Source: a virus
UHGV virus genome: UHGV-0186543
DNA: 46,602 nt
Strand: one strand, 5' to 3'
Positions 33 to 26,250 of the stretch are shown piece by piece (position 1 is the stretch's first letter; each line of letters begins with the position of its first letter). Position numbers and translations under genes: made by a program. The notes beneath the pieces were generated by a model. The model made no database searches, was not told the origin of the DNA, and worked only from the letters and a program-made list of their open reading frames with translations.

Positions 33-869
33 TCAAAATGCTGAATCAGCAACGGATACAGCCGACTTTTCCCCCATTAGCATCAATTTATCCAGCGTCA
101 TACTTCGCAGGTTGTCGCTGTGGATCACCAGATACCCTGCCCGCTCAGCGATCTCTTTGAAAGCGTCAAAGGTCATCAGATGTTCGCCTTTGGCAACATG
201 GCGCATCCTGGTCACTTTTCCATTTTTGATAGTGGTGATAAAAGAAAAATCCGGAATGGTTGGCTGATTTTCATCGAGTAGCAGGCAGTGGATGTATTCA
301 ATCGCCTCTAACATTTGCGTCTGTGACAGTTGTTCTATGTGAGAGACGGCGAAACGTTGGTGAATCATGGTGTAGGCATCGGGATACATCATGCCTTTCT
401 TACCGACCAGCATATTAACGGCATCACGTAAGGGAGTACGGTCATCGGTAGTTGTACTCCGCCTCTCTGGGCGCTGGCTAAAATAACAATCTTCAAGCTT
501 TTCGAAAACTTCCCAAGCCTGTTCTGTTTCCAGCATTTTGGCATGGCGAGCTGCGCCGCGTTCTGTCCAGAGAATGAGGGATCGGGTATGTTTAGCAACT
601 GACTGACTATCTGTCAGTCTGTTTTTGAAGTCGCGTAATTCATTACCTTCCAGCTTAAAAAAATGCTTTCCTACGACAAATCTGGCGATGTTGCGCTTGA
701 AGTTTTGCTGGATACCATTTACTTCCGTGCCATACAAACTGGCAAGCAATTCAGTAGTGATGACGGGAAGTTGGTTATGATGTAGCGGAGAAAGGGATTC
801 CGCAGATATTTGGATTGTCATCGCAGTGGCCTCACTTAGTGTTTTTTTCATCACCACCAGCGACGCCAA
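33..869 (-). CDS. phage antirepressor-like protein (ORF6N/KilA-N-type N-terminal domain)
   Basis: 278-aa ORF; N-terminal region (LASLYG...FVVGKHFFKLEGNELRDFK...LWTERGAARHAKML) resembles antirepressor/ORF6N-type DNA-binding domains from memory; preceded upstream (on minus strand) by its own terminator-bounded region. Confidence 0.5.
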   Translation of the reverse strand: MASLVVMKKTLSEATAMTIQISAESLSPLHHNQLPVITTELLASLYGTEVNGIQQNFKRNIARFVVGKHFFKLEGNELRDFKNRLTDSQSVAKHTRSLILWTERGAARHAKMLETEQAWEVFEKLEDCYFSQRPERRSTTTDDRTPLRDAVNMLVGKKGMMYPDAYTMIHQRFAVSHIEQLSQTQMLEAIEYIHCLLLDENQPTIPDFSFITTIKNGKVTRMRHVAKGEHLMTFDAFKEIAERAGYLVIHSDNLRSMTLDKLMLMGEKSAVSVADSAF

Positions 870-982
870 TCATCTGGTGGTGAACTGTGCAGGGTTGGCG
901 TAACCGGCTAAGTGAACCCGGCGCTTCCGCAGAAGCCCCCACACAGCCCACCATAATGCGAATGTGGCCGTGCCTAACACAT

Positions 983-1003
983 AAAAAAACCGCTAACGCG
1001 GCT
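983..1003 (-). terminator. putative rho-independent terminator upstream of antirepressor gene
   Basis: plus-strand A-run 983-989 followed by hairpin ACCGCTAACGCGGCT; on the minus strand this is a GC stem followed by a U-run. Confidence 0.45.
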
Positions 1004-1093
1004 ATGCGTCACTTAGATATCCGGGACGCCAATCCCGGCAACCGATTTTGCGGCTGCGCGGAAACTATAGCCCCGGGCTTTTTCTAAGTCAAT

Positions 1094-6239: not shown

Positions 6240-6653
6240 ATGAGGATGAAGAATTTGATGCTTAGCGACCGTTTATCTCAAAGACGCAAACAGCTTGGTC
6301 TAACCCAACAACAGCTTGCTGATATGGTTGGAAGATCGAGTGTGAGCGTTTTTAAATGGGAAAGCGGACAAAATGAACCAAAGGGTCAGAACTTGCTGGC
6401 TTTGGCCAATGCACTTAAGTGTTCTGCCACATGGCTGCTTTTTGGTGACGAAGACCAGGCACCAACTCCGGTAGACGAATTACCAACAGAGCTGGATTCA
6501 CGTCAAAAAAGATTGTTAGAGTTATTTGATTCATTACCCGAGTCAGAAAAAGAAAAGCAACTAATTGAATTAGAAGATAAAGTTGAAAACTTTAATCGTT
6601 TATTTGAAGAGTTACTGGTTACCAGAAAGAAACTAACCCCCACCAAAAAATAA
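6240..6653 (+). CDS. CI-like phage repressor (XRE-family HTH)
   Basis: 137-aa ORF with N-terminal HTH (LTQQQLADMVGRSSVSVFKWESG); divergent from cro-like gene; alternative start at Met7 (6258). Confidence 0.75.
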   Translation: MRMKNLMLSDRLSQRRKQLGLTQQQLADMVGRSSVSVFKWESGQNEPKGQNLLALANALKCSATWLLFGDEDQAPTPVDELPTELDSRQKRLLELFDSLPESEKEKQLIELEDKVENFNRLFEELLVTRKKLTPTKK

Positions 6654-6656
6654 AAT

Positions 6657-6692
6657 AAAGGCAATGTTTTCAATGCATTGCCTTTATTTTTA
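6657..6692 (+). terminator. rho-independent terminator after repressor gene
   Basis: stem AAAGGCAATG / CATTGCCTTT followed by TTTATTTTT. Confidence 0.6.
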
Positions 6693-6702
6693 CCCCAAAT
6701 AC

Positions 6703-6749
6703 TAACCTTTGTTATAAAACGCCTTGCACATAAAATTACCTTTAGTTAT
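6703..6749 (+). promoter_or_regulatory. pL-like promoter with left operators: TAACCTTTGTTA (6703-6714) and TTACCTTTAGTTA (6736-6748); -35 TTGTTA (6709-6714), -10 TAAAAT (6731-6736)
   Basis: same TAAC-N4-GTTA operator family as the right operator region, overlapping sigma70-like hexamers. Confidence 0.5.
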
Positions 6750-7430
6750 ATTCATTCCATCAACAACGCTTACCCAGCGGCAGTTGTTCAGAAACAAGTT
6801 CTGACAGCCGGAAAGACGGCACCAAATTTTGCGCGTCGGCGCCAACACGATGACAGAGGGAAAGACTTCACCGGCATATGGCACATGTGTCGAAGCGGTC
6901 TGGATGGAAGCGGAGCCTTAACGCGTTGTCTCCATAGCAGGTAGCCGGAATGTGCAAGCCACAGCCAGGTATGAGCGATTGATTCACCATCAAGGCGATA
7001 CGGTGTGACCACCAGGGAAGAGTCCTGGCTACAACACGAGAGCGCACTTCATCGACTCAACTTTGAGCTTTGTCGTTAAATTTTGAAATGGCGGAGTGCG
7101 CTCCCGGTTGTGGTGAACAGGTGTTTAACGGGAACTCCCTGCCCGTTACCCGGTTCGATTCCGGGCGCTACACCGTAATTATTGGGACCCTCTGGTGAAA
7201 GCCAGAGCCTCTCGCAGAGAGGCGCAACGAGGAAAGACCGGGCATGACCAGCCCTGACAGCCGGAAAGACGGCACCCTTTAGATGGCAAAAGACCCGCAC
7301 AAGGCGGGCCAGTTACCCCGAACGGCGACCAAACCATTCGGATATGGTGCAAGGGACCAACCTTACACCGAGGAAAGACCAACGACAGAGCCGCTGATCG
7401 GTTCTGAGTATACCCCACCAAGGAGTCGCT

Positions 7431-7751
7431 ATGGAAGCGCGCACCATCCCAGTAACACTCTTTATTAATTATGCAACTTCAACTTTCAGCCACGAAAAGC
7501 TGCTTGTTGCGACTGTTGATATGTCAAAAAATTTTCCAGACAGGTACATCCTTCTGGAAAGCCGCGAAATTGAAATTACCGTCAACCAGCCCCAGCCAAT
7601 CGACATCATCGGTTTACAGGTCGAGCAACTGCGTGAACAAAAACAGAAAACAGTCGCCGAAGCCCAACAGCGTATTGCTGCTATCGATGACAAAATCCAG
7701 CAGTTACTTTGCATCGAATACACGCCAGATACTGATGAAATCCCCTACTAA
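7431..7751 (+). CDS. hypothetical early-left protein
   Basis: 106-aa ORF with strong SD (AAGGAG) 7 nt upstream; first sizeable ORF of the leftward operon. Confidence 0.5.
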   Translation: MEARTIPVTLFINYATSTFSHEKLLVATVDMSKNFPDRYILLESREIEITVNQPQPIDIIGLQVEQLREQKQKTVAEAQQRIAAIDDKIQQLLCIEYTPDTDEIPY

Positions 7752-7781
7752 AGACCACTGACCTGTAATGAGGAAAGACCA

Positions 7782-9995
7782 ATGACCATTTTTAACGGCT
7801 TGTTAGAAGCGAAAAAAGGCGCGCTCAAAAACGGCGCGATCCCGGCGCTGGCCATCGCCATCGACGCCCCTAACAAAAAAGTTGCCGAGAACATCATCAT
7901 CGGCAAATTGTGGGAAGCCTACCCTGACCACGGCGACAACTATTTCAAACCTAAAATCTGGGAAGATGCCCCGGGCCAACCGCGCCCAGGCGTTGGTGAG
8001 TTTGATGAGACGTTCGCCACAGAACACAGTTTTGATGGCGAAAAATGGGTAGTTAACACCCCCGTTGTAGATAGCGGTTCAGCAGATATCGCACAGGTTA
8101 ACGACCTGATGAAACTGCCGGCTCGTGAACGATTCGCCGCCGTTCTGCTGTTCAGCCACGACGCCAACGAAGTCGACAGTGAATTGCTTGCGCAGACGCG
8201 TGAATACCTGGAGATGCTCGACAACAGTGATACTGACAGTGAGGATGAGGTTGACGCATTTAACCGCATCGTTCTTGATGCCATGGTGGCGTGTAAGCCC
8301 ATCGAGTACATGCATATTGCTGGATTGAATAATCTGGTACATGCAATTTTGGCAAGTTGCGATACCCAGGAACAAAACCCGACCAGTTGGACTATCTCCA
8401 AATTTATAAAAAAATGGGTAGAGAATCCCGGTAAACGCGATGAAATGCTGCCGGAGGTAAAACCAGAAACAGCATCCGCACGTCCTTACCAACAGACTCA
8501 CGCCACACTGGATCGTGAAATTGCCTGCGCCCTGTTACCCGTTGGCCCGGAAAAAATCACCCCCAGCGTCCTGAAAGCGGCAGACGAAATAATCAGCCAG
8601 GATCGGGAGGATTTTAAACGCTGGTCAATGGCCTTGCGCACAACGGATCAGATCCTTGCCTATGACCGCGCATCAGTATTCGGTGTTATTCAGAGCGCCC
8701 CCGCAAAAGACACGTACCACTTCCCACAATCCCTGCGCAGTCACATCGACAACTGGCTGCAAGCTAACGGGCAGCGTGATGCAAATGCTGTTGAAGAGAA
8801 GCCAAAGGAAGCAGCACCAAAGGATGATGTAAAAGTCACCAACCACGGCGGCGGACGATTCTCAATTGATGGGATGATGTCAGAAACACCCTCAAATCAT
8901 GGCGAAAAAAGCGAAGCTGCAAATGCTGGAGAACGTAGTTTGCAGCAGTTGCGTGAGCGGTTTGTCACGCCTCGCCATGTGTATGACGTACCTGAAAATA
9001 ACGCCGTCTCACAGAGGGAACCTACAGCTATTACCCCGGCAGAAGAGACTCCTCCACAAGAAAAACTTAGCGAGCAGGTAAAGGATCTGGTGCAGAACGT
9101 TGACGCGCTGGTTGAGCGGATCCATACCGAAGAGCACAAGCGGCAGAATGCAATCTCAGCTATCGAAACGGAGTTAAAGGACTCCGACGACACAGATAAC
9201 CTGGCATTGTGGAAGAACGTATTCAAAACCGATGAGCGCTTCACCAGTGCTTTCTCTCAGAACGGCGGCGGCACATCCATCAACGGCACTTATATAGCGA
9301 TGAAAGCGACTCGCGAATTTGGGCCGTTTGGTATTGGCTGGGGTGTAGAGGTGGTGGAAGAGCGTTTTGATAAAGGCGCACCGATAGTTCGCAAAAAACA
9401 GGTTGGTGAAAAAATAGAATGGGATCTGATTCAAGACGGTGTTGGCGGGTACCTATGTGAAATGCACCACACCATGAAAGTTAGAGTCTGGTACATATTG
9501 AATGGAGTGCGCGGTGAGTCCGAGGCTTACGGATGCACACCTTATATCTACGACACTAAATACGGACCAACAAGCGACGGCGAAGCGCCGAAGAAATCCT
9601 GGACGGATGCTGTTAAGAAAGCGCTATCCCCTCTCGGATTCAGCGCCGATATTTTCATGGGCCTGTACGACAATCCGGAATACCGCCAGAGGAATAAAGC
9701 TGAGTTTGATATCAAGAATGCCAGCGAGAATGCGGAAGATGCTACCCGTCTGCGTAAGGAACTGGATGAGAAGCTTATCAACGTTGCCAATACGCTGGCC
9801 TCCGCGGTAACCACTAACGAAGTAAACAAGGTATTTGGCCTCATCGCCCGCGAAGTGGATGTACACCGAAAAGCAGCAGAAGCCAAAGGCGATAAAGAAT
9901 ATTCATCGTATCTGGGATCGCGCCTGCGCCGTATCACCGACATCAAAACTGAACGCCTCGCCGCCCTCACCGCTGCACAGGAGCAAACCGCATGA
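7782..9995 (+). CDS. large protein with C-terminal Rad52/Sak-like single-strand annealing domain and long acidic N-terminal extension
   Basis: 737-aa ORF; C-terminal segments REFGPFGIGWGVEV and KKSWTDAVKKALSPLGFSADIFMGLYD parallel Rad52 N-domain motifs (NEMFGYNGW; KEAVTDGLKRAL..FG) recalled from memory; preceded by conserved TAATGAGGAAAGACC translation-initiation element. Confidence 0.55.
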   Translation: MTIFNGLLEAKKGALKNGAIPALAIAIDAPNKKVAENIIIGKLWEAYPDHGDNYFKPKIWEDAPGQPRPGVGEFDETFATEHSFDGEKWVVNTPVVDSGSADIAQVNDLMKLPARERFAAVLLFSHDANEVDSELLAQTREYLEMLDNSDTDSEDEVDAFNRIVLDAMVACKPIEYMHIAGLNNLVHAILASCDTQEQNPTSWTISKFIKKWVENPGKRDEMLPEVKPETASARPYQQTHATLDREIACALLPVGPEKITPSVLKAADEIISQDREDFKRWSMALRTTDQILAYDRASVFGVIQSAPAKDTYHFPQSLRSHIDNWLQANGQRDANAVEEKPKEAAPKDDVKVTNHGGGRFSIDGMMSETPSNHGEKSEAANAGERSLQQLRERFVTPRHVYDVPENNAVSQREPTAITPAEETPPQEKLSEQVKDLVQNVDALVERIHTEEHKRQNAISAIETELKDSDDTDNLALWKNVFKTDERFTSAFSQNGGGTSINGTYIAMKATREFGPFGIGWGVEVVEERFDKGAPIVRKKQVGEKIEWDLIQDGVGGYLCEMHHTMKVRVWYILNGVRGESEAYGCTPYIYDTKYGPTSDGEAPKKSWTDAVKKALSPLGFSADIFMGLYDNPEYRQRNKAEFDIKNASENAEDATRLRKELDEKLINVANTLASAVTTNEVNKVFGLIAREVDVHRKAAEAKGDKEYSSYLGSRLRRITDIKTERLAALTAAQEQTA

Positions 9996-10561
9996 GCACC
10001 GCTATCGCTATTGCAAAAGAATATGCCAGCCTGATTGACCTGCTGGAAACCTCCGACGAACTGACGCCAGAGATGATCGCCGACACGCTTGAAGGTATGG
10101 AAGGAGAACTGGGAGACAAACTGGACGCCATGATGGTCATCTGCCGCAATTTACAGGGCAATGCCAATACCTGCGCTGAAGAAATGTCTCGCCTGGCTAC
10201 CCGTAAGACGTCCTTTGAAGACAAGGAAAAAGCAATCCGAAAGCATATGCTCGCCTGCATGCAAGCTGCTGGCCTGGATAAACTGAAAACCGCAAAAAAC
10301 ACATTTACTGATGCACAGGGGGCTATCTGGGTAATTATCGATAGCAAAGATAAGATCCCGGATGAGTATGAAGGCGTGTCACTTGTTGATGTAGAAACGG
10401 TTATTACACCAAACAAGCGAGCCATTAAAGAAGTGATTGAATCTGCGGAGGCGGTTGCCGCCGAAATACTGGCGCGTGGAGAAACACCACCAGCCGAGTT
10501 ATTAAACCCGGTACCAGGCGCACATCTGGAACGCGGCGAACGTTCACTGAGGGTACGCTAA
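9992..10561 (+). CDS. Gp157-like protein (recombinase-associated family), tentative
   Basis: 189-aa ORF overlapping stop of the annealing-protein gene; size and position match Gp157-family proteins that accompany Sak/Erf recombinases. Confidence 0.35.
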   Translation: MSTAIAIAKEYASLIDLLETSDELTPEMIADTLEGMEGELGDKLDAMMVICRNLQGNANTCAEEMSRLATRKTSFEDKEKAIRKHMLACMQAAGLDKLKTAKNTFTDAQGAIWVIIDSKDKIPDEYEGVSLVDVETVITPNKRAIKEVIESAEAVAAEILARGETPPAELLNPVPGAHLERGERSLRVR

Positions 10562-10743
10562 TGCTTAAACTCACATTAAAGCGTGGTGACGCGGTTCACC
10601 TGGTACTTGCCGATGGAACCAACGGCATTATTGAAGCACGGAGCCGCTGCGAACTTGGGCTACACCTGCCAGAAAACATTAAGGTCACTCGGGAGAAATC
10701 GGCATTCCCCCCACCAGAACTGATTACGCCTAATCAGAAATAA
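10561..10743 (+). CDS. hypothetical small protein
   Basis: 60-aa ORF; start overlaps stop of upstream gene (TAATG). Confidence 0.35.
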   Translation: MLKLTLKRGDAVHLVLADGTNGIIEARSRCELGLHLPENIKVTREKSAFPPPELITPNQK

Positions 10744-10792
10744 AAACTCACCATCGCTAGCATTGCGATTCACCAGTAACCGGAGGATCACA

Positions 10793-11017
10793 ATGCTGCG
10801 ATGGCAACCGGGAGCAACTCTGCTCTCCGCATTTGATATCAAAATTGGCCGACTGTCGGCCAGCGTCAGGAAACAGGCTGTGACCGAGTCTGATATTGCC
10901 CGTGCCTGCAAGGCGGCAGATGACGCAATAAGCTACATAATGAGGAAAGACCATGAGAAGCGATCACGACATAATCACCAGAGAAGAAATGGTCGAGCTG
11001 ACGGGAAGCCCACTTAA
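10793..11017 (+). CDS. hypothetical small protein (start set at ATG 10793 rather than the TTG at 10763)
   Basis: ATG preceded by CGGAGGA SD; overlaps the following ORF by about 65 nt, so one of the two may be spurious. Confidence 0.3.
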   Translation: MLRWQPGATLLSAFDIKIGRLSASVRKQAVTESDIARACKAADDAISYIMRKDHEKRSRHNHQRRNGRADGKPT

Positions 11018-11216
11018 ATCAAAGCAATGTGAGGCTCTTCGCCGGGCTGGAATTTTCTTCATGGAAAGGGCTGACGGGCACCCAAAAACAACCTGGGGCC
11101 ATTTCATGAACCCAATAAAATTTCGCAATTTACAGGAGGTGACGACGCGAAAAGATGATGAACCTGATTTTGGAGCAATATTTAATGGCCGGAAAGAGAA
11201 AGAACCCAGCAGATAA
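10953..11216 (+). CDS. excisionase-like small DNA-binding protein (DUF4224-like)
   Basis: 87-aa ORF immediately upstream of integrase; motif EEMVELTGSPLKSKQCEALRRAGIFF resembles DUF4224 proteins; preceded by TAATGAGGAAAGACC element. Confidence 0.5.
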   Translation: MRSDHDIITREEMVELTGSPLKSKQCEALRRAGIFFMERADGHPKTTWGHFMNPIKFRNLQEVTTRKDDEPDFGAIFNGRKEKEPSR

Positions 11217-12201
11217 CTGGATGCCGCCTCGTGTTTACCAGGGCAAAGCGGCCTACGAATTCAGGAATAAAGATAACAAAGCGATACGCCTGTGCGCATT
11301 GGATGCGCCACGATCAGCCGTATGGCTGGCATATGAAAAAGCGGTCGGTGACGAAAAAGAAAGAAATACTTTTCAGGCGCTCGCGGAACAATTCATGACC
11401 TCCCCTGATTTTATGGATTTGGCAGTCGAAACCAGGAAAGACTACACAAAATATTCCGGAAAAGTTCTGCCTGTCTTCGGGAAGATCGACCCGGATAAAA
11501 TCAAACCTGAACATATTCGGCGCTATATGGATCAACGCGGTTTATCAAGCCGAACTCAGGCAAACAGGGAAAAAAGCTTTATGTCCAGGGTATTCCGTTG
11601 GGGTTATGAACGAGGTTATGTCCAGAGGAATCCTTGTCAGGGAGTTAAGCAGTTTAAAGAGACAGCACGCGAACGTTATATTACGGATGAAGAATATCAG
11701 GCCGTTTATGAAGTATCTCCTGATGTTGTTCGCGTGGCAATGGAGATTGCCTACTTATGCGTGGCCAGACAGAGTGATGTACTTTCATTGCAGAAAGACC
11801 AGCTGTTCGATTCCGGGATCTACATTCGTCAGGGAAAAACCGGCGTTAAGCAAATCAAAGCCTGGTCGCCTCGTCTGCAGAAAGCGATAGCTCTGGCTCG
11901 TTCTCTGCCATTAAAACCGGGAATCAGTAGCCTGTTTGTGATTCATCAAACTACCGGAGGCAAGTACACCCGTGATGGTTTTAACTCTCGTTGGCGTGAT
12001 GTCAAAGCGGCAGCACAGGAAAAATATCCTCATCTGCAAATAGACTTCACATTTCATGATCTGAAAGCAAAAGGTATCTCTGATCTGGAAGGCAGCCTGG
12101 AAGAGAAGCAAGCAATTTCCGGGCATAAGAACCCACGACAGACAGCAGCATATGACCGAAAAGTTAAAGTAGTGCCCGTAGTTGGTGGCCAGAGAAAATG
12201 A
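11155..12201 (+). CDS. int: tyrosine site-specific integrase (lambda Int family)
   Basis: 348-aa ORF with C-terminal catalytic signature (HDLKAKG ... SGHKNPRQTAAYDR); ends 130 nt from the tRNA-derived att core; start may be later than 11155. Confidence 0.9.
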   Translation: MMNLILEQYLMAGKRKNPADNWMPPRVYQGKAAYEFRNKDNKAIRLCALDAPRSAVWLAYEKAVGDEKERNTFQALAEQFMTSPDFMDLAVETRKDYTKYSGKVLPVFGKIDPDKIKPEHIRRYMDQRGLSSRTQANREKSFMSRVFRWGYERGYVQRNPCQGVKQFKETARERYITDEEYQAVYEVSPDVVRVAMEIAYLCVARQSDVLSLQKDQLFDSGIYIRQGKTGVKQIKAWSPRLQKAIALARSLPLKPGISSLFVIHQTTGGKYTRDGFNSRWRDVKAAAQEKYPHLQIDFTFHDLKAKGISDLEGSLEEKQAISGHKNPRQTAAYDRKVKVVPVVGGQRK

Positions 12202-12262
12202 ATGATGATGCGTCCAGAGAAAAATCATCTTCGGACGCATCTTCGGAAATGAAAAAGAAGAT

Positions 12263-12290
12263 ACAAAAAAACCACCCGAAGGTGGTTTCA
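12263..12290 (-). terminator. putative terminator between att core and int (strongest on minus strand)
   Basis: hairpin ACCACCC-GAA-GGTGGT flanked by A-run on plus strand (U-run on minus). Confidence 0.45.
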
Positions 12291-12331
12291 CGACACTGCT
12301 TATTGCTTTGATTTTATTCTTATCTTTCCCA

Positions 12332-12387
12332 TGGTACCCGGAGCGGGACTTGAACCCGCACAGCGCGAACGCCGAGGGATTTTAAAT
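12332..12387 (-). other. attP core: 3' 56 nt of a tRNA-Leu(UAA) gene (leuZ-type), not a complete tRNA
   Basis: reverse complement reads ATTTAAAATCCCTCGGCGTTCGCGCTGTGCGGGTTCAAGTCCCGCTCCGGGTACCA, matching from anticodon loop to CCA of enterobacterial tRNA-Leu(UAA) as recalled; upstream tRNA half is absent and replaced by AT-rich phage DNA. Confidence 0.75.
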
Positions 12388-12608
12388 TGTTCGTTTTGTG
12401 CAATAAATTCAAATGATTATGGTAAATTATCCGGACATAATGGTGCGTGTGAATATCAAATAATCATATAGTTATGACACGTCTTACTCATCATCTTCTG
12501 AAGGTTTTTGGCAAAAAATGGTGATGTTTTGCGCCTTGATGTGACCAAACAGTCAGGAGCAAAGTGAGGTAAAGGGGTATGAGAAAAACTCACATACCCC
12601 AACACAAA

Positions 12609-13028
12609 TTAAAACGCAGTTGGGTGAATGCCATATTCACCGTTTGATCCATACCCTATGCGATACATCAAAGTACGATCTGTTGTCACCTTGCCCGCCT
12701 GCTCACTCATACCACCGCCACATACCCCTTTAGGCCACGCGCTGAAGACATGATCACCAATCGTTGGGTATACAACGACTTTCTGAGCTGTACCTAAATC
12801 TGCCACCTCTTTACCATCAACATAAACACGGGAAAAGCACGCGCTTCCAAAGAACCCCGAGTCACGCTTGATGATCACCTCTCCCGTACCGTCTCGTTTT
12901 TCGAGTAACACGGTACTGATAATTTGTTTTTCAGGAACAGGAGTGGCTTGTTCATTTGAGACAGGTTTTGTAGCACAACCGACAAGAGCAAGCATAATCC
13001 CACAGGCAAGAGCATTTTTAACGACCAT
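12609..13028 (-). CDS. lipoprotein moron near attP
   Basis: 139-aa ORF with signal peptide and lipobox (LALVGC); SD GGGAG upstream; sits between tail module and att site, the usual position of accessory genes. Confidence 0.55.
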   Translation of the reverse strand: MVVKNALACGIMLALVGCATKPVSNEQATPVPEKQIISTVLLEKRDGTGEVIIKRDSGFFGSACFSRVYVDGKEVADLGTAQKVVVYPTIGDHVFSAWPKGVCGGGMSEQAGKVTTDRTLMYRIGYGSNGEYGIHPTAF

Positions 13029-14238: not shown

Positions 14239-14241
14239 TCA

Positions 14242-14466
14242 TCAATCCCATAATTGCGTTTCTTTTTTAACCGGTTCGGGGTCGATTTCTGGTAAAACAA
14301 TTTTTTCTCCTGCACGAAACACGGCATACATATCCGTTACGCCGTAATTTAAAACCTGATATAACACGGTTTCTGTCGTTTTTGCTGTTCTCCCGTAGAC
14401 AGCAAGGCAGATCTGATCGAGACGGTCACCGTCCCGTGTAGTGTATGTAATCATTTGGGGCCCCAT
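14242..14466 (-). CDS. P2 gpX-like tail protein X
   Basis: 74-aa ORF; GDRLDQICLAVYGRT...TVLYQVL pattern resembles gpX family. Confidence 0.6.
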   Translation of the reverse strand: MGPQMITYTTRDGDRLDQICLAVYGRTAKTTETVLYQVLNYGVTDMYAVFRAGEKIVLPEIDPEPVKKETQLWD

Positions 14467-14485
14467 TAATTAAAAGGATTTCATA

Positions 14486-14620
14486 ATGAGAATTAATTTT
14501 AGTAGTCGGAGAGGTATTAGTATTTCGGCATCAAAAAAAATACCATCAGGTTGTTTTACATTTATGCTCGTAGTTTTTTTTATTATTTTTATACTTGTTA
14601 AGTGCTCTGATAGCGCTTGA
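14486..14620 (+). CDS. small hydrophobic peptide (44 aa) encoded antisense within the tail module; unverified
   Basis: ATG with AAGGA SD 7 nt upstream in a 160-nt AT-rich gap between tail genes; peptide MRINFSSRRGISISASKKIPSGCFTFMLVVFFIIFILVKCSDSA has one predicted TM segment; below the ORF-track length cutoff. Confidence 0.3.
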   Translation: MRINFSSRRGISISASKKIPSGCFTFMLVVFFIIFILVKCSDSA

Positions 14621-14627
14621 TTTTGTA

Positions 14628-15056
14628 TTAATCTAGCGAAGCTCCATAATATTCGAGCGTGAGTGAAAAGTCCTGCGATTTTGGGGTTCCGCCCATCAGA
14701 AAACTGTTTTGCGTTTCTGTTAACTCCCTGATAACCCAGTACCCCTTCACCTCCCCGGTCCCCAGCACCAGTTGCTGGGGTTCTCCCGAGTTCCCCAGTG
14801 CCCGCAAATCTGTTAACAAGCCAATGCCACACCCATCAAGGAATAACGCGTTTATTTTCCCATCGATCGTGATTGTGGGGTTCGGTCGTCCGGTTATCTG
14901 CAATGCGTCGTTTTTCCCGAATCGTGTTTGCTGAGCCCAGCGCCAGGCGTCACTACGTTGCAGTTTGTTGTACGCTACTGTTGATATAGCAAAAATGAAA
15001 TCACCCACGCCCAGCATGATATCCTCAGCACCGTTTATCGCATCACTCATTGTCAC
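14628..15056 (-). CDS. P2 gpU-like tail protein
   Basis: 142-aa ORF immediately downstream of tape measure gene, overlapping it by 4 nt. Confidence 0.5.
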   Translation of the reverse strand: MTMSDAINGAEDIMLGVGDFIFAISTVAYNKLQRSDAWRWAQQTRFGKNDALQITGRPNPTITIDGKINALFLDGCGIGLLTDLRALGNSGEPQQLVLGTGEVKGYWVIRELTETQNSFLMGGTPKSQDFSLTLEYYGASLD

Positions 15057-16693
15057 CCCGCCGCCGCTGGTTTATCAAACATCGCACCACGGTTGTACGA
15101 ACTCGCAACTTGTCTCAGCCCGTCGAGCACACCTGATGCAGCAGCCTGCTGTGTTGATTGTGGATCTGCCGCTCCGATAATATTGATTTCAATTTTATTG
15201 TTTTGCTCTGGCGCTGGAGTTGCGACTGCCTGTCTCAGCGCTTCAATATTCAACGTTGCTGAGTTTTGTGATTCAGGCGTTGAGTCTTTATTTATTAATC
15301 CAGTAAACGGGTTAGCAAATGAGAGCATTGATTCAGCCTGTGATTTTGCAGGCGCAAGACGCTCAGGGTGTCGCATATTATCTACGGCTTCGTCGGCTTT
15401 TGCTTTTGCTACATTATCTGCTGCCAGTCCTGGATTCGGTGAATATTTACCACCACTATCCATGAATTCCTGATACGCTTTATTATATTCTTCGTTATAT
15501 ACGCGCTGTTCCTCGTCTGTTTTCTCGTCCGGAATTAACCACTCAAGTTTTTTTGCTACTGCCCAAATTATTTTTCCGAATTTAACGCAAGCTTCGCCAA
15601 AACTGACTATCCCCTCCCACATTTTTTTCATGCTTTCGGGCTTTACCCACTCAGTAATTGTGTTGACAAATCCGCCCTGATTGTCCTTAAACCATGCTGT
15701 AAATGTTTCGCGTACTGAGTCAAACGTCGGCGCGAGTTCCCCCCCGATTTTACCGAGTGTATCTGCAAGCCCCGACGTAATAGAGCCCCACAGATTTGTC
15801 ACTGATACATGCGCACGCGCCGCTCCTTCCGCACCCTCTTTTGTTAACAGATTCGATTTTTGCGCGTCGGCCATTGTCTGTTCCCAACTTTTACCAGTGG
15901 CCTTCATATACGTCATGATTTTATTAGCTTCGCCCCCCATGAGCTGGTCAGCAAGACTCGCCGCTTGCTTCTCATCTTTCATTTCAGAGATGCGACGCAT
16001 AACCTCATTAAACTGTTTTTCCCGATCCCAGCCAGCCATTCGTTTTTTCGTCAGGCCGATTTGAAACAACATGGGATTCAGGTTTTTTTCGTTTCCGATT
16101 TCGCCGATTTTATTTGTAAGTTCTTCTGACAAATCCCCGATATTTTCGCCGTTAAGCCCGGCTGCTTTACCGATATTGTCCCACGCAGCGTATTTTTCGA
16201 CGCCAACCCCGTAGGACTTCGCCAGACCGAGTTTTTCTGACGTCTCTGCATTCATTGCCAGCGCACCAGCAGCAGCACCGCCGATGAGCCCCGCCGCGCC
16301 AAGTGTCCCCCATTTGATGCCTTTTCCTGTTGCCTTTATCGTTCTTGCAGTCGCTCCACCGCCCCATTTTGCAGCCCCTTTTGCGCGACCCGTCCACTTC
16401 TCCAGCCGTTGTTTTTTAGCAAGCTGAGTATTCAGCGCCTCCTGGTCCTGCGTTGTCGCTTTTATTCGACGGTCCAGCTTTTGATACTGAGCAGATAAAT
16501 CAGAAACGTCTTTACCTGCCAGTTTCATTGCTGCGATTTTGTCTTTTAATTTATCCTGACTTTTCGTTAATTTCCCGACAGTAGACGACGTCTGCCGAAT
16601 CGCATCATTGAGTTCTGTTGTACCGCGACGAAACGACGGGTCTATTCGCCCACCGAATACAACCTGCGTTTTAAAGTTTTGAGAAATAGCCAT
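15053..16693 (-). CDS. tail tape measure protein
   Basis: 546-aa ORF, Gly/Ala-rich and coiled-coil-like; position after tail chaperone gene. Confidence 0.8.
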   Translation of the reverse strand: MAISQNFKTQVVFGGRIDPSFRRGTTELNDAIRQTSSTVGKLTKSQDKLKDKIAAMKLAGKDVSDLSAQYQKLDRRIKATTQDQEALNTQLAKKQRLEKWTGRAKGAAKWGGGATARTIKATGKGIKWGTLGAAGLIGGAAAGALAMNAETSEKLGLAKSYGVGVEKYAAWDNIGKAAGLNGENIGDLSEELTNKIGEIGNEKNLNPMLFQIGLTKKRMAGWDREKQFNEVMRRISEMKDEKQAASLADQLMGGEANKIMTYMKATGKSWEQTMADAQKSNLLTKEGAEGAARAHVSVTNLWGSITSGLADTLGKIGGELAPTFDSVRETFTAWFKDNQGGFVNTITEWVKPESMKKMWEGIVSFGEACVKFGKIIWAVAKKLEWLIPDEKTDEEQRVYNEEYNKAYQEFMDSGGKYSPNPGLAADNVAKAKADEAVDNMRHPERLAPAKSQAESMLSFANPFTGLINKDSTPESQNSATLNIEALRQAVATPAPEQNNKIEINIIGAADPQSTQQAAASGVLDGLRQVASSYNRGAMFDKPAAAG

Positions 16694-16801
16694 CGATTTT
16701 CATGACCTCGTTTACATAGAAATTAAAAACCCGGTACGGCAGGTCCATTTGCGTATCGGGCGGGATGGCAAGTTTTTTCGCAATAAACGGAATCAGAATA
16801 A

Positions 16802-17083
16802 CTATATCTGATGTCTGTCTTTCGGGGGCTTTACCAGTTCGTTAAACGCAGCCTCCATTTGATCGTAATCGCACGCAGGCAGTGCATATAAATCCTCTCG
16901 ATCCAGATTTGCCAGGCGCGCCAGCATTGTCGCTGTCCGCTCTTCAAGACCACTTTTATCGTTACTGAACATAATGCGGTCGCGTAATTTTGGTTCGCGA
17001 ATAGTAATTGTATCGCGGCTCTCGCCCTTAATAATAAATGGTCGAGAGAGCGTAATAGTCATACTGTCTAATAATGATTCCAT
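16802..17083 (-). CDS. tail assembly chaperone (P2 gpE-like), with probable -1 frameshift extension (E') to about 16671
   Basis: 93-aa ORF between tube and tape measure genes; the -1 frame is open across the whole 108-nt gap to the tape measure start. Confidence 0.5.
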   Translation of the reverse strand: MESLLDSMTITLSRPFIIKGESRDTITIREPKLRDRIMFSNDKSGLEERTATMLARLANLDREDLYALPACDYDQMEAAFNELVKPPKDRHQI

Positions 17084-17095
17084 TTTATTTGCCTT

Positions 17096-17608
17096 TTAAT
17101 ATACATGGAGGATTCGAGCAACGCCCGCAAGGACGTCAACACCATTAATTACTCGTTTCATTTTTGCTGGATGAATCTCGTAAATAATTTTTCCATTTTG
17201 AACTCGTTTATAATAACTCGGCGCAATCGTTACTGATTGCCCAACTGCTGATTTTGAATCAGTCCCCTGAGCGTCATCAGTGATTGCCGTAATAAGACCC
17301 TCGTAGGTATCAATACGCTCAAAATTTATTCCATAGGAGTCTGTGTACGCACTACGAATTTCAAACCGCGTCCTGACTCCCGGTATTAACCCGAAATAGC
17401 TCATAACACCAGAATCAGAACCAGAAACTTTAAAACTGGCTGACATTTTCTCCATCCCCCCATCCAGTGTTATGGCTGTATCCATCGAGCCTGTTTTAAA
17501 CTCGTCCTCAATTATTTTCATATCAACAGGAGTATATTCAGTACAATTTAAAACCCGTTCACCTTGCACGAATAGCGCAAACGCGCGGTAAGCGTTGCTA
17601 TCTGACAT
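17096..17608 (-). CDS. tail tube protein (P2 FII-like)
   Basis: 170-aa ORF directly downstream of sheath gene. Confidence 0.7.
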   Translation of the reverse strand: MSDSNAYRAFALFVQGERVLNCTEYTPVDMKIIEDEFKTGSMDTAITLDGGMEKMSASFKVSGSDSGVMSYFGLIPGVRTRFEIRSAYTDSYGINFERIDTYEGLITAITDDAQGTDSKSAVGQSVTIAPSYYKRVQNGKIIYEIHPAKMKRVINGVDVLAGVARILHVY

Positions 17609-17625
17609 ATTTACTCTCCGAATTA

Positions 17626-19125
17626 TCAGGCTGTTTCTTTAAAAAGTGAGGCCAGTGCTTCAACTGTATAGTCATTATTAATGCGGTACATTAACGTAAT
17701 TGTTTGTGCCGGAGATTTCGGACCAAAATCAACATTAATATAAAGATTACCAGCGGCCAGACTTTCTTTTGTATTCAGCTCACCGTCTAACCACGCACGC
17801 CCTCCGTTAATCGCGCCCTGCTCCTCTAATTTGTGCAGATATGCGTTTATCGACTCGACAACGTCTGTTCCGAGGTGCAGGTCTATCGGACGATCAATAA
17901 AATCGGTCATCATTGCCCGGGCTATAGAATCCTCAATTACGTCAGCTGTTCGACGAACGCATTCAAAGGACCATTGGGGACTGAGGCTACACAGATAGTT
18001 ACCCCAGTGCCGGAACCCGTCATAGCGAATAATTGTGCTGACCTGACTGGCGTTCAACAGGTTCGCTGTGCAGTTTGTCTCACCAATAATAAAATCGTCG
18101 ACTTGTTCAAGCCCCGTAACTCCGTAGATGTTTTGGTTCGATTTACTCCACCAGAATCCTTTTTCATTATCAATTCTGGCTCGTAAACCAGCAGCGATAG
18201 CTGAATACGGACGAGATAACCCACTAACATCGCTCGTAGAATAAACACGAGGGCGCAGAATTTCCATTCTGCCGCCGTACCTCTGACGACGATTCACAAC
18301 GTCAGCAGGCGTAGCGCCTCGCGGTGAATCGATATACCCAACACCTCGTAATTTATTTGTCACCACTTCAAGTTGTTCAGCGATATAATCGTTAGCACTA
18401 TAATCTGGAGCAATTAAAATTCTCGGAGTCACTTGATTTATTTGTGCAGACGTCAACAATGCGTTAATCCCGTTAACGACGTTCTGCCTCATTTTTGTTT
18501 CGTCGTTGTCTTCTTCAACGCGGACAACAACAATAATAGCGTCATCCTGATTTAGTATTTCAGATACAGCGGGAGGAAGGGTGCCAGACCCACCGAGCAA
18601 TCCAGCTTTTTTCTGACTGCCTGCAATTACCGTCGGAATATTATATTTGAACGATTCGTCTTTGCCACCTGATAAATTTGTTGGAGGAAGAGCGAACACA
18701 GTCCCCGTTCCTGCGTGATCACCACCGAATGTGACATTAATATATTCCCCGATTTGTAGCCCTTCTTTATACTGCTGGTTCTGATCATACATTTTTGACG
18801 GAGTCATCGCGCCGTCTGTAAGCATTGTCAATTTTCTCGATCCGTCAGGCAGTGTACTATATCCTGGAGTTGCTACATTCCCGTTAATACCGAGATTGAC
18901 GATTTCGACAATCCAGTTGTTTCCGTCGGCCCCTGGCGTGACAGTTGAAAACTGAACAAGATTATCTGCGAGTTCAGATCCCCATAGTAGTGATGCGCAT
19001 GTTGGGGCGCTCGCATCCGGGGCCGTGCCGACGATACCGATAACGGAAATATCGACCGTGCTGATCTCTTTTGTTCCGTCGTCGTATTCGAGCGTGCGTG
19101 GGCCGTGCAAAAAATTAGTGCTCAT
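17626..19125 (-). CDS. contractile tail sheath protein (P2 FI-like)
   Basis: 499-aa ORF, size and order typical of myovirus sheath proteins. Confidence 0.8.
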   Translation of the reverse strand: MSTNFLHGPRTLEYDDGTKEISTVDISVIGIVGTAPDASAPTCASLLWGSELADNLVQFSTVTPGADGNNWIVEIVNLGINGNVATPGYSTLPDGSRKLTMLTDGAMTPSKMYDQNQQYKEGLQIGEYINVTFGGDHAGTGTVFALPPTNLSGGKDESFKYNIPTVIAGSQKKAGLLGGSGTLPPAVSEILNQDDAIIVVVRVEEDNDETKMRQNVVNGINALLTSAQINQVTPRILIAPDYSANDYIAEQLEVVTNKLRGVGYIDSPRGATPADVVNRRQRYGGRMEILRPRVYSTSDVSGLSRPYSAIAAGLRARIDNEKGFWWSKSNQNIYGVTGLEQVDDFIIGETNCTANLLNASQVSTIIRYDGFRHWGNYLCSLSPQWSFECVRRTADVIEDSIARAMMTDFIDRPIDLHLGTDVVESINAYLHKLEEQGAINGGRAWLDGELNTKESLAAGNLYINVDFGPKSPAQTITLMYRINNDYTVEALASLFKETA

Positions 19126-19130
19126 TTATT

Positions 19131-19364
19131 TTACTCTCCTGATTCGATTATAATTGGAGCCACATATTCAGCAACATCACCAAATTCACCGGCCACAGCT
19201 CGCCCGTATAGATTTCTACCGTATAATGTGGAATCGGTTTTAGATGCGGTAAATAAAATATCACTACCGATACCTCTGATATCACAATTAATATCAATAC
19301 TATTGCCTGATGTGCTAGAATAACGCGGTAATTTTATATTTGAAAAATCATCATCTTTAAACAT
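19131..19364 (-). CDS. hypothetical small protein, possibly tail fibre-associated
   Basis: 77-aa ORF between tail fibre and sheath genes, the position of a fibre assembly factor in P2. Confidence 0.3.
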   Translation of the reverse strand: MFKDDDFSNIKLPRYSSTSGNSIDINCDIRGIGSDILFTASKTDSTLYGRNLYGRAVAGEFGDVAEYVAPIIIESGE

Positions 19365-19369
19365 TTTAT

Positions 19370-20323
19370 TTAGGCCACTCTAATGAAATTTGTTGCAAAA
19401 CTCGCTGTAAAAATATCTTCGGCATTACCGTCTGTCGGTTCGGAACTCGACGGCATATACCCTGAGAGCGCCCACAGGCCAGGCAGGGATTCTGCTGAAA
19501 ATCCTATACTAATAATAACGTCGCTAATTAACTGCGCATTTCGTCTATATGTATACGCAGGAAAAATCAATGAACCTGCAATAGTATCCCCGGGTTTATA
19601 GTGCATAACAGTCTCGTTACTAAATCCAAATCCTGCATAAACAACTGAGCCGACAGCTGCAAACGCAGGCACCACCGGTGCAGGGTCATCGTTAGCATCA
19701 ATTAAATTGTCAATGTCTTCTTTGGTGTAATAATCATCAAGATTGACGCCGATATTTTCCCGCGCCGTTTTTTGCGCCGCCGCGCCTTTATCTTTGATTT
19801 CAGATAAATTTTTGCTTATCTGCAAATAACGCTTATCTGCATCTGTCTGACTAATTCCACTACTATTATCAATAATAACGTTAACAGTAGACGTGCTGGA
19901 CACCGCGAGTGTGTATTTATACGTGATTGAAATCAACGCACCGTTACTGTCCGTCGGTTTCAAAATATCCGGTGAACGTGCAACTGAGTACAGCTCCCCT
20001 TTATCTGTTAATATCCCCACCTCGCGGATGGTATAACCGCCGGTTTCCGGCGGTACGTACAGTGTAAAAATGACCTGATTACCGCTATTTTCTGACGATT
20101 TAATATCTCCGCGATACGTCTCGTGAATTAATGCTGTTCGGGCCGGGTCTGGCGTCACGTCGCCGTTTCCGTTTGCGTCACCAATAACGAATTTATTCAG
20201 CACCACGGGTACACCCGATGCCAGCGCAGCGGCTTCAAGTTGCGCCCCCCGGTCTGTCAGCACCGCATAAACCTGGCTCGCGCTCACTTTCAGATTTGAT
20301 TTTAATTTAGCCATTAGGTCCAA
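19370..20323 (-). CDS. tail fibre protein with N-terminal tail-collar domain (short P2 gpH-like)
   Basis: 317-aa ORF; N-terminal region (VIGDANG...TIREVGILTDKGELYSVARSP...IDNSSG) resembles phage tail-collar fibre domain. Confidence 0.55.
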   Translation of the reverse strand: MDLMAKLKSNLKVSASQVYAVLTDRGAQLEAAALASGVPVVLNKFVIGDANGNGDVTPDPARTALIHETYRGDIKSSENSGNQVIFTLYVPPETGGYTIREVGILTDKGELYSVARSPDILKPTDSNGALISITYKYTLAVSSTSTVNVIIDNSSGISQTDADKRYLQISKNLSEIKDKGAAAQKTARENIGVNLDDYYTKEDIDNLIDANDDPAPVVPAFAAVGSVVYAGFGFSNETVMHYKPGDTIAGSLIFPAYTYRRNAQLISDVIISIGFSAESLPGLWALSGYMPSSSEPTDGNAEDIFTASFATNFIRVA

Positions 20324-20933
20324 TCTCCACTAACAGACTCACAATTGGTGAGCCTGATATATATAATCCGCCATTTAATTTCACGCCACCATCACCATCG
20401 GCTGGTATATCAACATCCAATTTTGCGTAAGGACTTCCGGCAATAAAAAACTCACCGTCAACACCTGTTTCGAAATTTATTTCCTTTAATAATGAACGAC
20501 AATTTTTTGCATCAAATATTTGTGCAATAAATGTATTCAATAGCTCTAAATCTAACCCCATACTTTTTAGCAGATATATTTTAATTGCGAATGTATACGG
20601 GTCGTCCCTGGGTGTGGCTTCAAACCACTCTCTCATTTTGCTCTCAAATCCAACTGTTAATAACGCTCGTTCAACAGCTCCACGCGTTCCGCGGTGCTTG
20701 TTCTGCCACGCAGCTGCTTTAATAATTTCGCGTTTTTGCTGCTCGCTCCAGTCGGGGTTCCAGTAGGTGACGGCGTATTCCCACGCCAACCACGGCAACA
20801 GATTTGCAGGACACAAATCGGGATTTTTAATAATTCGAATATCGCCAGGCAGATCGCCAACGTGAGATAAAACAGATTCCAGCGCTCTCTCGGGGGTTAT
20901 TGCGTTCGGAGGCAGTACGCTTTGACTTGTCAT
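20307..20933 (-). CDS. tail protein I (P2 gpI-like)
   Basis: 208-aa ORF with LLPWLAWEYAVTYW...EQQKREIIK pattern. Confidence 0.6.
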   Translation of the reverse strand: MTSQSVLPPNAITPERALESVLSHVGDLPGDIRIIKNPDLCPANLLPWLAWEYAVTYWNPDWSEQQKREIIKAAAWQNKHRGTRGAVERALLTVGFESKMREWFEATPRDDPYTFAIKIYLLKSMGLDLELLNTFIAQIFDAKNCRSLLKEINFETGVDGEFFIAGSPYAKLDVDIPADGDGGVKLNGGLYISGSPIVSLLVEIGPNG

Positions 20934-20935
20934 GG

Positions 20936-21856
20936 CTACCCCATTTGCACGCTGAGTTTGATTTCTGTGCAGTGCGGGGCCTGTCCGACGCCAGCGATCA
21001 CATCCTCTGTTGGCGATATCAGAATCACACGCTCAGTGCCGTCACGGTGTATCGCATCGTAAATTCCCGACAGGGCTGCTGTCGCCCCGATTTTATGTTG
21101 TGTAGCCACGTATATAGCTAAATCGCTTTGTGCACCGTTGAGCAACACGTTCTGATCGGGACCGAGCCCCGCTACGATAACGGCTTCAACCCGGTAATTC
21201 AGGTTCGACGCAGGTTTTACTGTCACGAAATCAGTTAGTGGCCGAGTGTCGTCAGGAGACAGGGCCGCGTTCACTGTATTCAGTAGTGATTGTGGCGGAG
21301 TGCCGTCGCCGGTTCGCGACAGGACATACATATCGACGTATCCAGGCTGGGTCACGGGGGGGCCGTATGCCTGAGCAGACAAAACGTCTGGATCACTCGA
21401 TAGCGCGAAATAGTTATAGGCGTTCGTACTGCCGGCAGTATTCCGCGCGTACCACGATAGCTGTATGCGATGACGATACTCGTCGTCACTCTCGTAAACC
21501 GCCTCAGTCGGGGGAATTACATCGGGATTAGCTGGCGTTATCAACAGCCGCAGGCAGTCAAAATTAACGCCAATCTGGTCGAGGTCACTCCCTTTTGCAA
21601 ACGCGAGCAATACAGCGAGCATCCCCTGATTTACCCGGGCTGTAATAATGATTTCTCTGTATGCAACTATTTCCAGCAGTTTAACGGCCGGGTCTGACTC
21701 CAGGAGTGCGTTAAATTGTGGATATAATATCTGCAGCTCTGACAGTAGATTAGATTTAACATCTGAAAATAACGGGGTTTTAACGAATGCTGGCGGCGGC
21801 AGCAGACTCATATCAATAGTTTTCACTATCGAACTCTGAACTGTTGATGTTATCAA
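20936..21856 (-). CDS. baseplate protein J-like
   Basis: 306-aa ORF between gpW-like and gpI-like genes. Confidence 0.6.
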   Translation of the reverse strand: MITSTVQSSIVKTIDMSLLPPPAFVKTPLFSDVKSNLLSELQILYPQFNALLESDPAVKLLEIVAYREIIITARVNQGMLAVLLAFAKGSDLDQIGVNFDCLRLLITPANPDVIPPTEAVYESDDEYRHRIQLSWYARNTAGSTNAYNYFALSSDPDVLSAQAYGPPVTQPGYVDMYVLSRTGDGTPPQSLLNTVNAALSPDDTRPLTDFVTVKPASNLNYRVEAVIVAGLGPDQNVLLNGAQSDLAIYVATQHKIGATAALSGIYDAIHRDGTERVILISPTEDVIAGVGQAPHCTEIKLSVQMG

Positions 21857-22194
21857 AATATCAGCTCCATATTATTAAACTCTAATCGCTGTTGTGTTTC
21901 GATATCTGTTGCGATAATTAATATTGTTATTTTCCCGATATCCACTGCTAACACATTTATTCTGTCAATTCTGACGCGTGGTTCCCAGCGTGCTATTGCT
22001 CCTGCACTTTCCATTATTATTCTCATAGCAAGCGACGGATCAGTGGGATTATCAACGAGGTCAAATAATTTGCAGCCGTATTCCGGCAACATTACACGGG
22101 TTCCCAGCGGGGTCGTTAAAATATCAACGATAGACTGACAAATGTGATCAGTCCCCGATAAAGACTTACCAGTGTTACGGTCCATTCCAAGCAT
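21853..22194 (-). CDS. baseplate protein GPW/gp25 family
   Basis: 113-aa ORF with GPW-like sequence (SIVDILTTPLGTRVMLPEYG). Confidence 0.65.
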   Translation of the reverse strand: MLGMDRNTGKSLSGTDHICQSIVDILTTPLGTRVMLPEYGCKLFDLVDNPTDPSLAMRIIMESAGAIARWEPRVRIDRINVLAVDIGKITILIIATDIETQQRLEFNNMELIF

Positions 22195-22196
22195 AT

Positions 22197-24317: not shown

Positions 24318-24325
24318 GGTCCCAC

Positions 24326-25122: not shown

Positions 25123-25156
25123 GTTGATTCCTTAACAAAAAAGAGCCTTTCGGCTC

Positions 25157-26191: not shown

Positions 26192-26250
26192 TTATATATC
26201 CTGTATAAAAAAACCGCCCGGAGGCGGCTTGTTTTGAGTTTTTTTTGCTA

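Follow-up and report, generated by a model that had tools for sequence, protein, structure and literature searches.

The DNA analysed here (the window) is a stretch of 46,602 nucleotides, UHGV virus genome UHGV-0186543, which appears to be a whole ~46.6-kb phage genome, circularly permuted relative to a prophage in E. coli TUM13936. Positions 7782..9995 on the + strand encode a protein of 737 amino acids (aa), which is probably the single-strand annealing protein of a ZF40-like temperate phage, built on an N-terminal scaffold of the RecE family. This fusion protein is made of a RecE-type N-terminal scaffold, an acidic linker, a predicted Rad52-fold domain and a C-terminal helical tail. It is best read as a RecE-type protein with a Rad52-fold domain in place of the nuclease domain. 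A preliminary description of the sequence had proposed an oversized Rad52/Sak-like annealing protein. Our analysis agreed with this proposal: the protein has 737 aa against ~240 aa for its homologues carrying the Rad52_Rad22 family profile (PF04098), and the model of its C-terminal part adopts a Rad52 fold.

Searches with aa 456-737 retrieved many stand-alone proteins of ~240 aa sharing 40-45% identity with this part of the fusion, many of which carry PF04098 and some of which are named as members of the Rad52/Rad22 family. Whole-protein scans of Pfam-A, NCBIfam and PDB sequences gave no Rad52 match, so that alignments of homologues and structure prediction were needed to place the domain. The expectation that a family profile would recognise the C-terminus held for the relatives, since PF04098 was matched by 46 of 62 aligned homologues (35-61% identity; best expect value (E) 1.5e-7), but not for the protein itself. 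The AlphaFold2 (AF2) model of aa 456-737 had a mean predicted local distance difference test score (pLDDT) of 90 and displayed the fold of the Rad52 N-terminal domain, with a beta-beta-beta-alpha core and a long helix lining the DNA groove. Two lysines, K612 and K613, were invariant in the 62 aligned sequences and aligned with K152 and R153 of human RAD52, the basic pair of its inner groove for single-stranded DNA (ssDNA); RAD52 R156 and Y65 were not conserved in the same alignment. As modelled, aa ~470-640 (9189..9701, + strand) form a Rad52-fold, putative ssDNA-annealing core that retains the basic pair lining the RAD52 groove, and the protein shows both the fold and the key residues expected of the Rad52 superfamily. 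Long helices predicted with high pLDDT at aa 632-673, 678-701 and 705-736 make up a three-helix tail (aa 641-737; 9702..9992, + strand), which is also present in the stand-alone homologues and is a candidate Gp157-binding module. An internal start that would yield a stand-alone annealase from the fusion gene was considered and rejected, as there is no methionine between aa 366 and 508.

The N- and C-terminal parts were modelled separately, a check put forward in the preliminary description. The AF2 model run on aa 1-400 contained three domains, all encoded on the + strand: a small alpha/beta domain (D1, aa 1-93; 7782..8060), a helical domain with pLDDT values of 74-92 (D2, aa 106-225; 8097..8456) and a second helical domain with a pLDDT of ~90 (D3, aa 233-337; 8478..8792). 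They are followed by an acidic linker predicted to be disordered (aa 338-465; 8793..9176, + strand), where pLDDT fell below 50 save for aa 352-362, which form a weak hairpin. This hairpin lies at a conserved motif, GGGRFSIDG (aa 356-364; 8847..8873, + strand), which was found again in most fusion homologues in the form GxG[RK]FS[IV][DE]G.

Similarity to RecE was clearest in D3, which corresponds to RecE aa ~261-370, a region that falls outside the RecE nuclease domain. Residues 231-335 of the fusion matched phrog_607 (8.3e-25), phrog_2082 (1.3e-19) and NCBIfam PRK09709 (1.3e-12), the last with a score of 46.6 bits against an equivalog cut-off of 1269, and BLASTP against RecE aligned aa 242-307 alone. 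PF27430, precomputed on homologues, maps roughly to D3 via the fragments P0148 and P0122. D3 and the linker are shared directly with RecE; the homology of D1-D2 runs via proteins of the HannyBb type. Pairwise BLAST aligned fusion aa 18-330 with aa 20-339 of the 823-aa HannyBb protein (E 1.5e-17), and D2 aligned with this protein as well as with a second relative, P0244. D1-D2 occur in at least two sequence types, which are freely combined with effectors. With the N-terminal 455 aa as query, nearly all the sequences retrieved were near-identical ones from Salmonella, and a scan of viral contigs for diverse RecE relatives returned 80 identical Rac copies. By sequence comparison and modelling, the N-terminal extension, previously described as unassigned, is predicted to fold over aa 1-337 into three domains that are homologues of the N-terminal, non-nuclease part of RecE-type proteins.

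Two bridging proteins, P0249 and P0244, join a bona fide RecE N-terminus to a Rad52-like C-terminus of this kind. P0249 (775 aa) carries Pfam Exonuc_VIII and shares 49% identity with aa 1-518 of Rac RecE (E 6e-156), yet the ~310 aa at its C-terminal end share 62% identity with fusion aa 423-737; it records a swap of the nuclease domain for an annealase domain. P0244 is intermediate, with 34% identity to RecE aa 6-366 and an E of 3e-23 to fusion aa 141-378. As judged from their sequences, these proteins make the kinship between the scaffold and RecE unambiguous. The same D1-D3 scaffold type was found in the HannyBb protein and in the ECO26_1771-like 'exonuclease' of PPompW, from enterohaemorrhagic E. 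coli (EHEC)/e14-like prophages (genes at L252:3375-5846 and L251:2875-5342, respectively), which share the operon position just upstream of xis-int. These proteins differ from the fusion in ending with an Rv2179c-like 3'-5' exonuclease (DnaQ-like; PF16473, E 2.4e-67) and in having no Gp157 gene after them. D3 and the linker of HannyBb are 39% identical to RecE aa 278-592, with linker motifs shared with RecE. More generally, the linkers carry short motifs in a combinatorial manner, and GRGE[YF]V[ED]GISDPxD is common to Rac RecE and some annealase fusions. These alignments show one scaffold family bearing three unrelated effectors: an exonuclease of the PD-(D/E)XK kind, one of the DnaQ-like kind and an annealase with a Rad52 fold.

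The extent of the RecE homology bears directly on the possibility that the protein is a genuine exonuclease, with an active site somewhere in its N-terminal 450 aa, as implied by its PGAP ('exonuclease family protein') and PHROGs ('exonuclease') annotations. Such an activity would be in line with the homology to part of RecE, and no function has been assigned to D1 or the helical domains. However, the homology is confined to the non-nuclease region. PF06630 (Exonuc_VIII) did not match the fusion protein, and neither did PF12684/DUF3799 (PD-(D/E)XK; RecE aa ~564-866), which detected RecE itself at 4.1e-28; the PF12684 domain of RecE (aa 615-850; Rac recE at L002:4787-7387) has no counterpart here. 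Moreover, the PHROG labelled 'exonuclease', phrog_7838, covers exactly the Rad52-fold part, and the label therefore seems to have been transferred from RecE by annotation. Such proteins of lambdoid phages are named 'RecE-2' in the literature, where their role was left unknown and where AlphaFold 3 (AF3) showed no nuclease domain in them (Zheng, Casjens, Davidson, Amundsen, Smith 2025, PMC12315714). We consider a genuine exonuclease very improbable, and the same confinement of the homology speaks against a nuclease as the function of the N-terminal extension, one of the roles first suggested for it. Host-factor recruitment, another of those roles, is plausible.

The open reading frame (ORF) of the fusion is genuine and intact, and purifying selection acts on it. 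It starts with an ATG and has a good ribosome-binding site, the Shine-Dalgarno sequence GAGGAAAG lying 7 nt before the start. Of 5426 complete E. coli genomes, 463 contain the stretch 7400-10800 with a nucleotide identity of 95-99%; 450 of the matches cover at least 80% of it and contain the ORF at full length, annotated as 'hypothetical protein' or 'exonuclease family protein'. Full-length homologues are present in isolated phages, Stenotrophomonas BUCT708/709 (53% identity) and Pectobacterium ZF40 (35%). We also surveyed 80 IMG/VR loci encoding a relative of the C-terminal domain, which comprised 61 fusions (632-814 aa), 13 stand-alone proteins (242-300 aa) and 6 intermediate forms. In a cluster-representative search, the same architecture occurred in ~30 clusters at 50% identity, down to 34% identity. 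Ratios of non-synonymous to synonymous substitution (dN/dS) against close E. coli alleles lay at 0.10-0.23 in D1-D3 and at 0.05-0.11 in the Rad52 part, compared with 0.7-0.9 in the linker.

These results weigh heavily against a decaying or artefactual fusion, that is, two genes joined by error or a pseudogenised RecE of which only the Rad52-like part would be functional, if any. In favour of decay, a few viral contigs encode shortened versions of the fusion gene (570, 549, 396, 376 and 360 aa), and an insertion sequence (IS) element lies in the region in some E. coli strains: in R8 (NZ_CP107172.1) and 1448 (NZ_CP184062.1), the IS3-family element ISEc52 is inserted within the recombination region. 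Decay is opposed by the good ribosome-binding site, the presence of the gene in ZF40 and BUCT708/709 and the purifying selection acting on D1-D3. The ORF is full length in 450 E. coli genomes, has the fusion architecture in 61 of the 80 viral loci and persists down to 34% identity; it is therefore not an artefact. A decayed or artefactual fusion is hardly credible, and the sequencing error that the preliminary description had allowed for can be discarded.

The N-terminal 455 aa are acidic, as had been noted before (isoelectric point (pI) 4.9, net charge -26). They had also been called repetitive, but neither DNA tandem repeats nor internal protein repeats were found in this region. In view of this acidity, the N-terminal half could be a separate module for countering defences or taking over the host, such as a decoy or DNA mimic directed at RecBCD or restriction, merely fused to the annealase and standing outside the recombination mechanism. 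This half of the protein has no known fold, the conserved short motifs of the linker are typical of protein-protein interaction and the stand-alone annealase homologues do without the scaffold, all of which would suit such a module. Against it, the scaffold is also borne by two kinds of recombination nuclease, the PD-(D/E)XK enzyme RecE and the DnaQ-like enzymes, at the same operon position, which argues for a role tied to DNA-end processing. Furthermore, the RecE N-terminus enhances linear-linear recombination (PMC11611040), and a 102-aa N-terminal fragment of RecE (aa 121-222) boosts homology-directed repair in human cells (PMC12825301). These published results would suit a scaffold whose function does not hinge on the effector, and we regard a separate counter-defence module as unlikely.

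The true conserved partner of the annealase is Gp157 and not an exonuclease. A Gp157 gene was found directly downstream and on the same strand in 80 of the 80 loci, usually with a 4-nt overlap, and the same Rad52-like/Gp157 order was seen in the annotated phages ZF40, BUCT708, PMG1, PseuP_222 and Vibrio D171. In the window, a 4-nt ATGA overlap joins the stop of the fusion gene to the start of the Gp157 ORF (9992..10561, + strand). Its 189-aa product belongs to the Sipho_Gp157 family (PF05565, E 3.8e-29, 102.2 bits against a Pfam gathering cut-off of 28.6; phrog_253, 1.2e-46), as the Gp157-like gene reported earlier at this position should. The Chi sequence GCTGGTGG occurs within this gene at 10487..10494 (- strand) and is one of three in the window; Chi is not enriched, 1.0 being expected and 9 of 100 shuffles reaching 3.

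An obligatory neighbour, translationally coupled and arranged in the order typical of exonuclease/annealase pairs, could itself be the missing nuclease, in which case the pair would be a non-canonical two-component exonuclease/annealase recombinase. Conserved charged residues of Gp157 (D31, K43, D45, E64, D117, D124, H178 and E180) could be taken in the same sense, as could the fact that the tests run here gave no support to its kinship with Mu Gam (see below). Pfam, PHROGs, NCBIfam and PDB searches, however, assigned no nuclease family or fold to Gp157, and its N-terminal half is coiled-coil-like. In Firmicutes phages, sipho_gp157, Mu gam, DUF2483 and DUF1351 share the position beside erf and sak4, 'implying analogous function' (PMC8093625); the alternative occupants of this position are not nucleases. 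A nuclease role for Gp157 is quite improbable.

A natural mosaic suggests which part of the annealase might contact Gp157. P0006 (837 aa) and P0014 (844 aa), both with an extra ~100-aa insertion after D2, are 92-100% identical over the scaffold (aa 1-519) and the tail (aa 750-837), and just 20-52% identical over the intervening Rad52 core, a natural cassette swap. A mosaic boundary therefore separates the core from the tail, and the tail travels with the downstream gene. This behaviour fits a contact between the tail and Gp157, for which the C-terminal domain of Red-beta, which binds lambda Exo, provides an analogy (PMC11611040).

No gene for RecE, lambda Exo or another recombination exonuclease was found by direct scan of the early-left operon, in keeping with what had been reported from inspection of the sequence. 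Ten long ORFs outside the operon were also scanned and revealed just GIY-YIG and HNH nuclease genes, which lie in a cargo island. The PGAP annotation of a 93-95% identical prophage lists no nuclease beyond these, its sole exonuclease entry being the 'exonuclease family protein' label on the fusion gene. The lack of an exonuclease is not unusual, since 84 of 246 lambdoid Rec modules have no nuclease gene (PMC12315714).

The first gene of the module encodes a 106-aa protein (7431..7751, + strand; phrog_2479, 2.6e-51) and may provide a link with host proteins. Its C-terminus, DTDEIPY, resembles the C-terminal tip DDDIPF of SSB (the protein that binds single-stranded DNA), a hexapeptide that mediates SSB protein interactions (PMC5872125). 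Homologues of the 106-aa protein are encoded upstream of the fusion gene in 49 of the 80 loci. Among the 5638 complete ORFs of the 80 loci, exactly 46 end with [DE][ILVM]P[FYW], each of which is this gene. Diverged homologues keep the tip as [DE]-[ILV]-P-[FY] (ESDIPF, ESDVPF, ADELPY and FDEIPF); the ZF40 homologue is without it. No homologue of RacC, which is encoded upstream of recE, was found in the 80 loci containing the 106-aa gene. In phage HK620, stimulation of Sak4 by SSB depends on the NDYPPF tip at the SSB C-terminus (PMC5928155), and this tip parallels the DEIPY/SDIPF tip described here. The 106-aa protein could mimic the SSB tail, serve as a cognate mediator or recruit host enzymes that bind SSB.

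Comparison with known systems sets the fusion apart from each of them. As in Rac, the gene lies in an early-left operon beside xis-int, and like RecE, its product has a multi-domain N-terminal scaffold with a detectably homologous D3, then a long acidic linker with short motifs. Unlike RecE, which ends in a PD-(D/E)XK 5'-3' exonuclease and is followed by recT, the fusion has a Rad52-fold annealase at its end and Gp157 as the next gene, and its D1-D2 are of the HannyBb type rather than the Pfam Exonuc_VIII type. The fusion does not belong with the RecE exonucleases because it has no nuclease domain, nor with the two-component exonuclease/annealase systems (lambda Red, RecET, 'SynExo') because no exonuclease is adjacent. 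The stand-alone annealases of Pseudomonas phages PMG1, MPK9 and PseuP_222 and Vibrio phage D171 (~245 aa, 31-43% identical to fusion aa 471-722) have the Rad52 core, the helical tail and the overlapping downstream Gp157 gene but are missing the RecE-type scaffold and linker of ~465 aa; more distant stand-alone Rad52-like annealases are the Sak proteins of 80alpha and ul36. P22 (Erf/Abc1/Abc2/Arf) and HK620 (Sak4 and a cognate SSB) likewise combine an annealase with accessory proteins, have no phage exonuclease and rely on host functions. Their annealase families, accessory proteins and architectures are different, and they have nothing like the RecE-type scaffold. ZF40 was part of the phage panel of the 'RecE-2' study, in which its module was scored as anti-RecBCD only, with no strand-annealing protein (PMC12315714). 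In contrast to that account, the C-terminus is identified here as a Rad52-fold annealase with Gp157 as its obligate partner. No description of a RecE-scaffold/Rad52 fusion was found in the literature searched. The annealase fold, Gp157 and the RecE scaffold were each known singly; what is new is their combination, the recognition of 'RecE-2' as an annealase and the modularity of a scaffold with three effectors.

We propose the following mechanism for the fusion system. The Rad52 domain would oligomerise, bind ssDNA and anneal complementary strands, like RAD52, Sak and Erf. The ssDNA would be supplied by host nucleases or replication forks, as in P22, HK620 and about one third of lambdoid Rec modules. 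The helical tail would bind Gp157, as the Red-beta C-terminal domain binds lambda Exo, and Gp157 would act like the Mu Gam homologues found at the same module position, guarding DNA ends or dealing with nucleases of the host. The RecE-type scaffold and linker would tether interchangeable effectors (5'-3' exonuclease, 3'-5' exonuclease or annealase) to the same place or partner, and a possible cognate mediator is the 106-aa protein that has the SSB-like tip. A broader version can be put forward only tentatively, and we find it somewhat doubtful: the scaffold could be a general delivery module for DNA-end effectors, and in this phage the scaffold-annealase, Gp157 and the SSB-tip 106-aa protein could form an undescribed exonuclease-free system, with ssDNA obtained via recruited host SSB-interacting enzymes (RecQ/RecJ, ExoI, PriA) or by docking to the replisome.

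Several results count against the assignment of the protein as an annealase working with Gp157 on a RecE-type scaffold. Neither the 737-aa protein nor its C-terminal fragment matched PF04098 at E<=0.01, and the family profile aligned with human RAD52 aa 56-159 (PDB) at a weak E of 0.5, so that the Rad52 assignment rests on transitive homology and predicted structure. The scaffold has no recognisable functional fold, which makes the role given to it purely inferential. PHROGs labels Gp157 as 'Mu Gam-like end protection', but BLASTP of Gp157 against Mu Gam gave no significant match (E 3.3), the Phage_Mu_Gam Pfam profile did not match even at E 10 and the two belong to separate PHROGs (phrog_491/2205 for Mu Gam, phrog_253 for Gp157). 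An hhalign comparison of 65 Gp157 with 53 Gam sequences gave a probability of 1.5%, both alignments being shallow (effective number of sequences (Neff) ~3), and a PDB profile search with Gp157 produced coiled-coil noise only. The suggested binding of the tail to Gp157 draws on analogy and one mosaic example. Finally, the direct exonuclease scan was confined to genes outside the virion-gene region (~14,240-32,000), which makes up about one third of the window. With these points taken into account, an annealase on a RecE-family scaffold is still the interpretation that we consider probable.

The genes around the fusion form a lambdoid early region. On the + strand, a cI-like helix-turn-helix (HTH) repressor gene (6240..6653) is followed by the 106-aa gene, the fusion, Gp157, a 60-aa gene, the excisionase and the integrase (to 12201); cro-like, YdaT/CII-like, O-like and DnaB-like genes diverge on the - strand. 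The 60-aa protein (10561..10743, + strand; phrog_2482, 5.4e-35) is the product of the fourth conserved module gene, present downstream in 49 loci and in ZF40. Family profiles identified the excisionase (DUF4224; 10953..11216, + strand) and the tyrosine integrase (11155..12201, + strand) that close the early-left operon. Between the repressor gene and the 106-aa gene, ~780 bp (6654..7430) contain no convincing ORF, and related E. coli records mark just a 74-aa hypothetical protein in the counterpart of this interval; it could hold an antitermination element or an RNA. Beyond the integrase (12202..12610), a late-control gpD-like gene and contractile-tail genes follow directly, with no tRNA, and the attP site should lie just after int. 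Overall, the phage looks like a ZF40-like temperate myovirus with a lambdoid early region.

Two further regions of the genome were noted. The interval ~37000..46600 is a low-GC (34-45%) cargo island and a possible defence or moron region. It contains genes for a LEM-3-like GIY-YIG protein (42221..43072), an HNH_2 endonuclease (43153..44388) and an LprI-domain protein (45534..46457), together with several ORFs that have no assignment, among them a 455-aa one at 40573..41940. At the other end of the window, Rfam models for C4 antisense RNA (74.5 bits), isrK (80.4 bits) and c4-a1b1 targets (52.9 bits) matched 873..1070 (- strand), just upstream of an ORF6N-domain gene (33..869, - strand). By similarity, these elements make up a P1/P7-like immI (c4-ant) antirepressor module inside a lambdoid phage.

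The annealase-Gp157 pair and the SSB-like-tip protein are candidates for new parts in recombineering and might dispense with a dedicated exonuclease. The fusion gene is carried by ~8.5% of complete E. coli genomes and by very many Salmonella genomes, where it is annotated as 'hypothetical' or 'exonuclease' while its catalytic half is, as predicted here, an annealase. Reassigning it would change the census of recombination modules, in which phages like ZF40 are scored as lacking a strand-annealing protein (PMC12315714). It also bears on RecE itself: the ~560-aa N-terminus of RecE still figures in the literature as a part of unknown function, although full-length RecE is preferred for linear-linear direct cloning (PMC11611040). 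The occurrence of the same scaffold on an annealase or on either of two unrelated nucleases suggests that its function is independent of the effector, and these natural chimeras are available for testing what the RecE N-terminus does.

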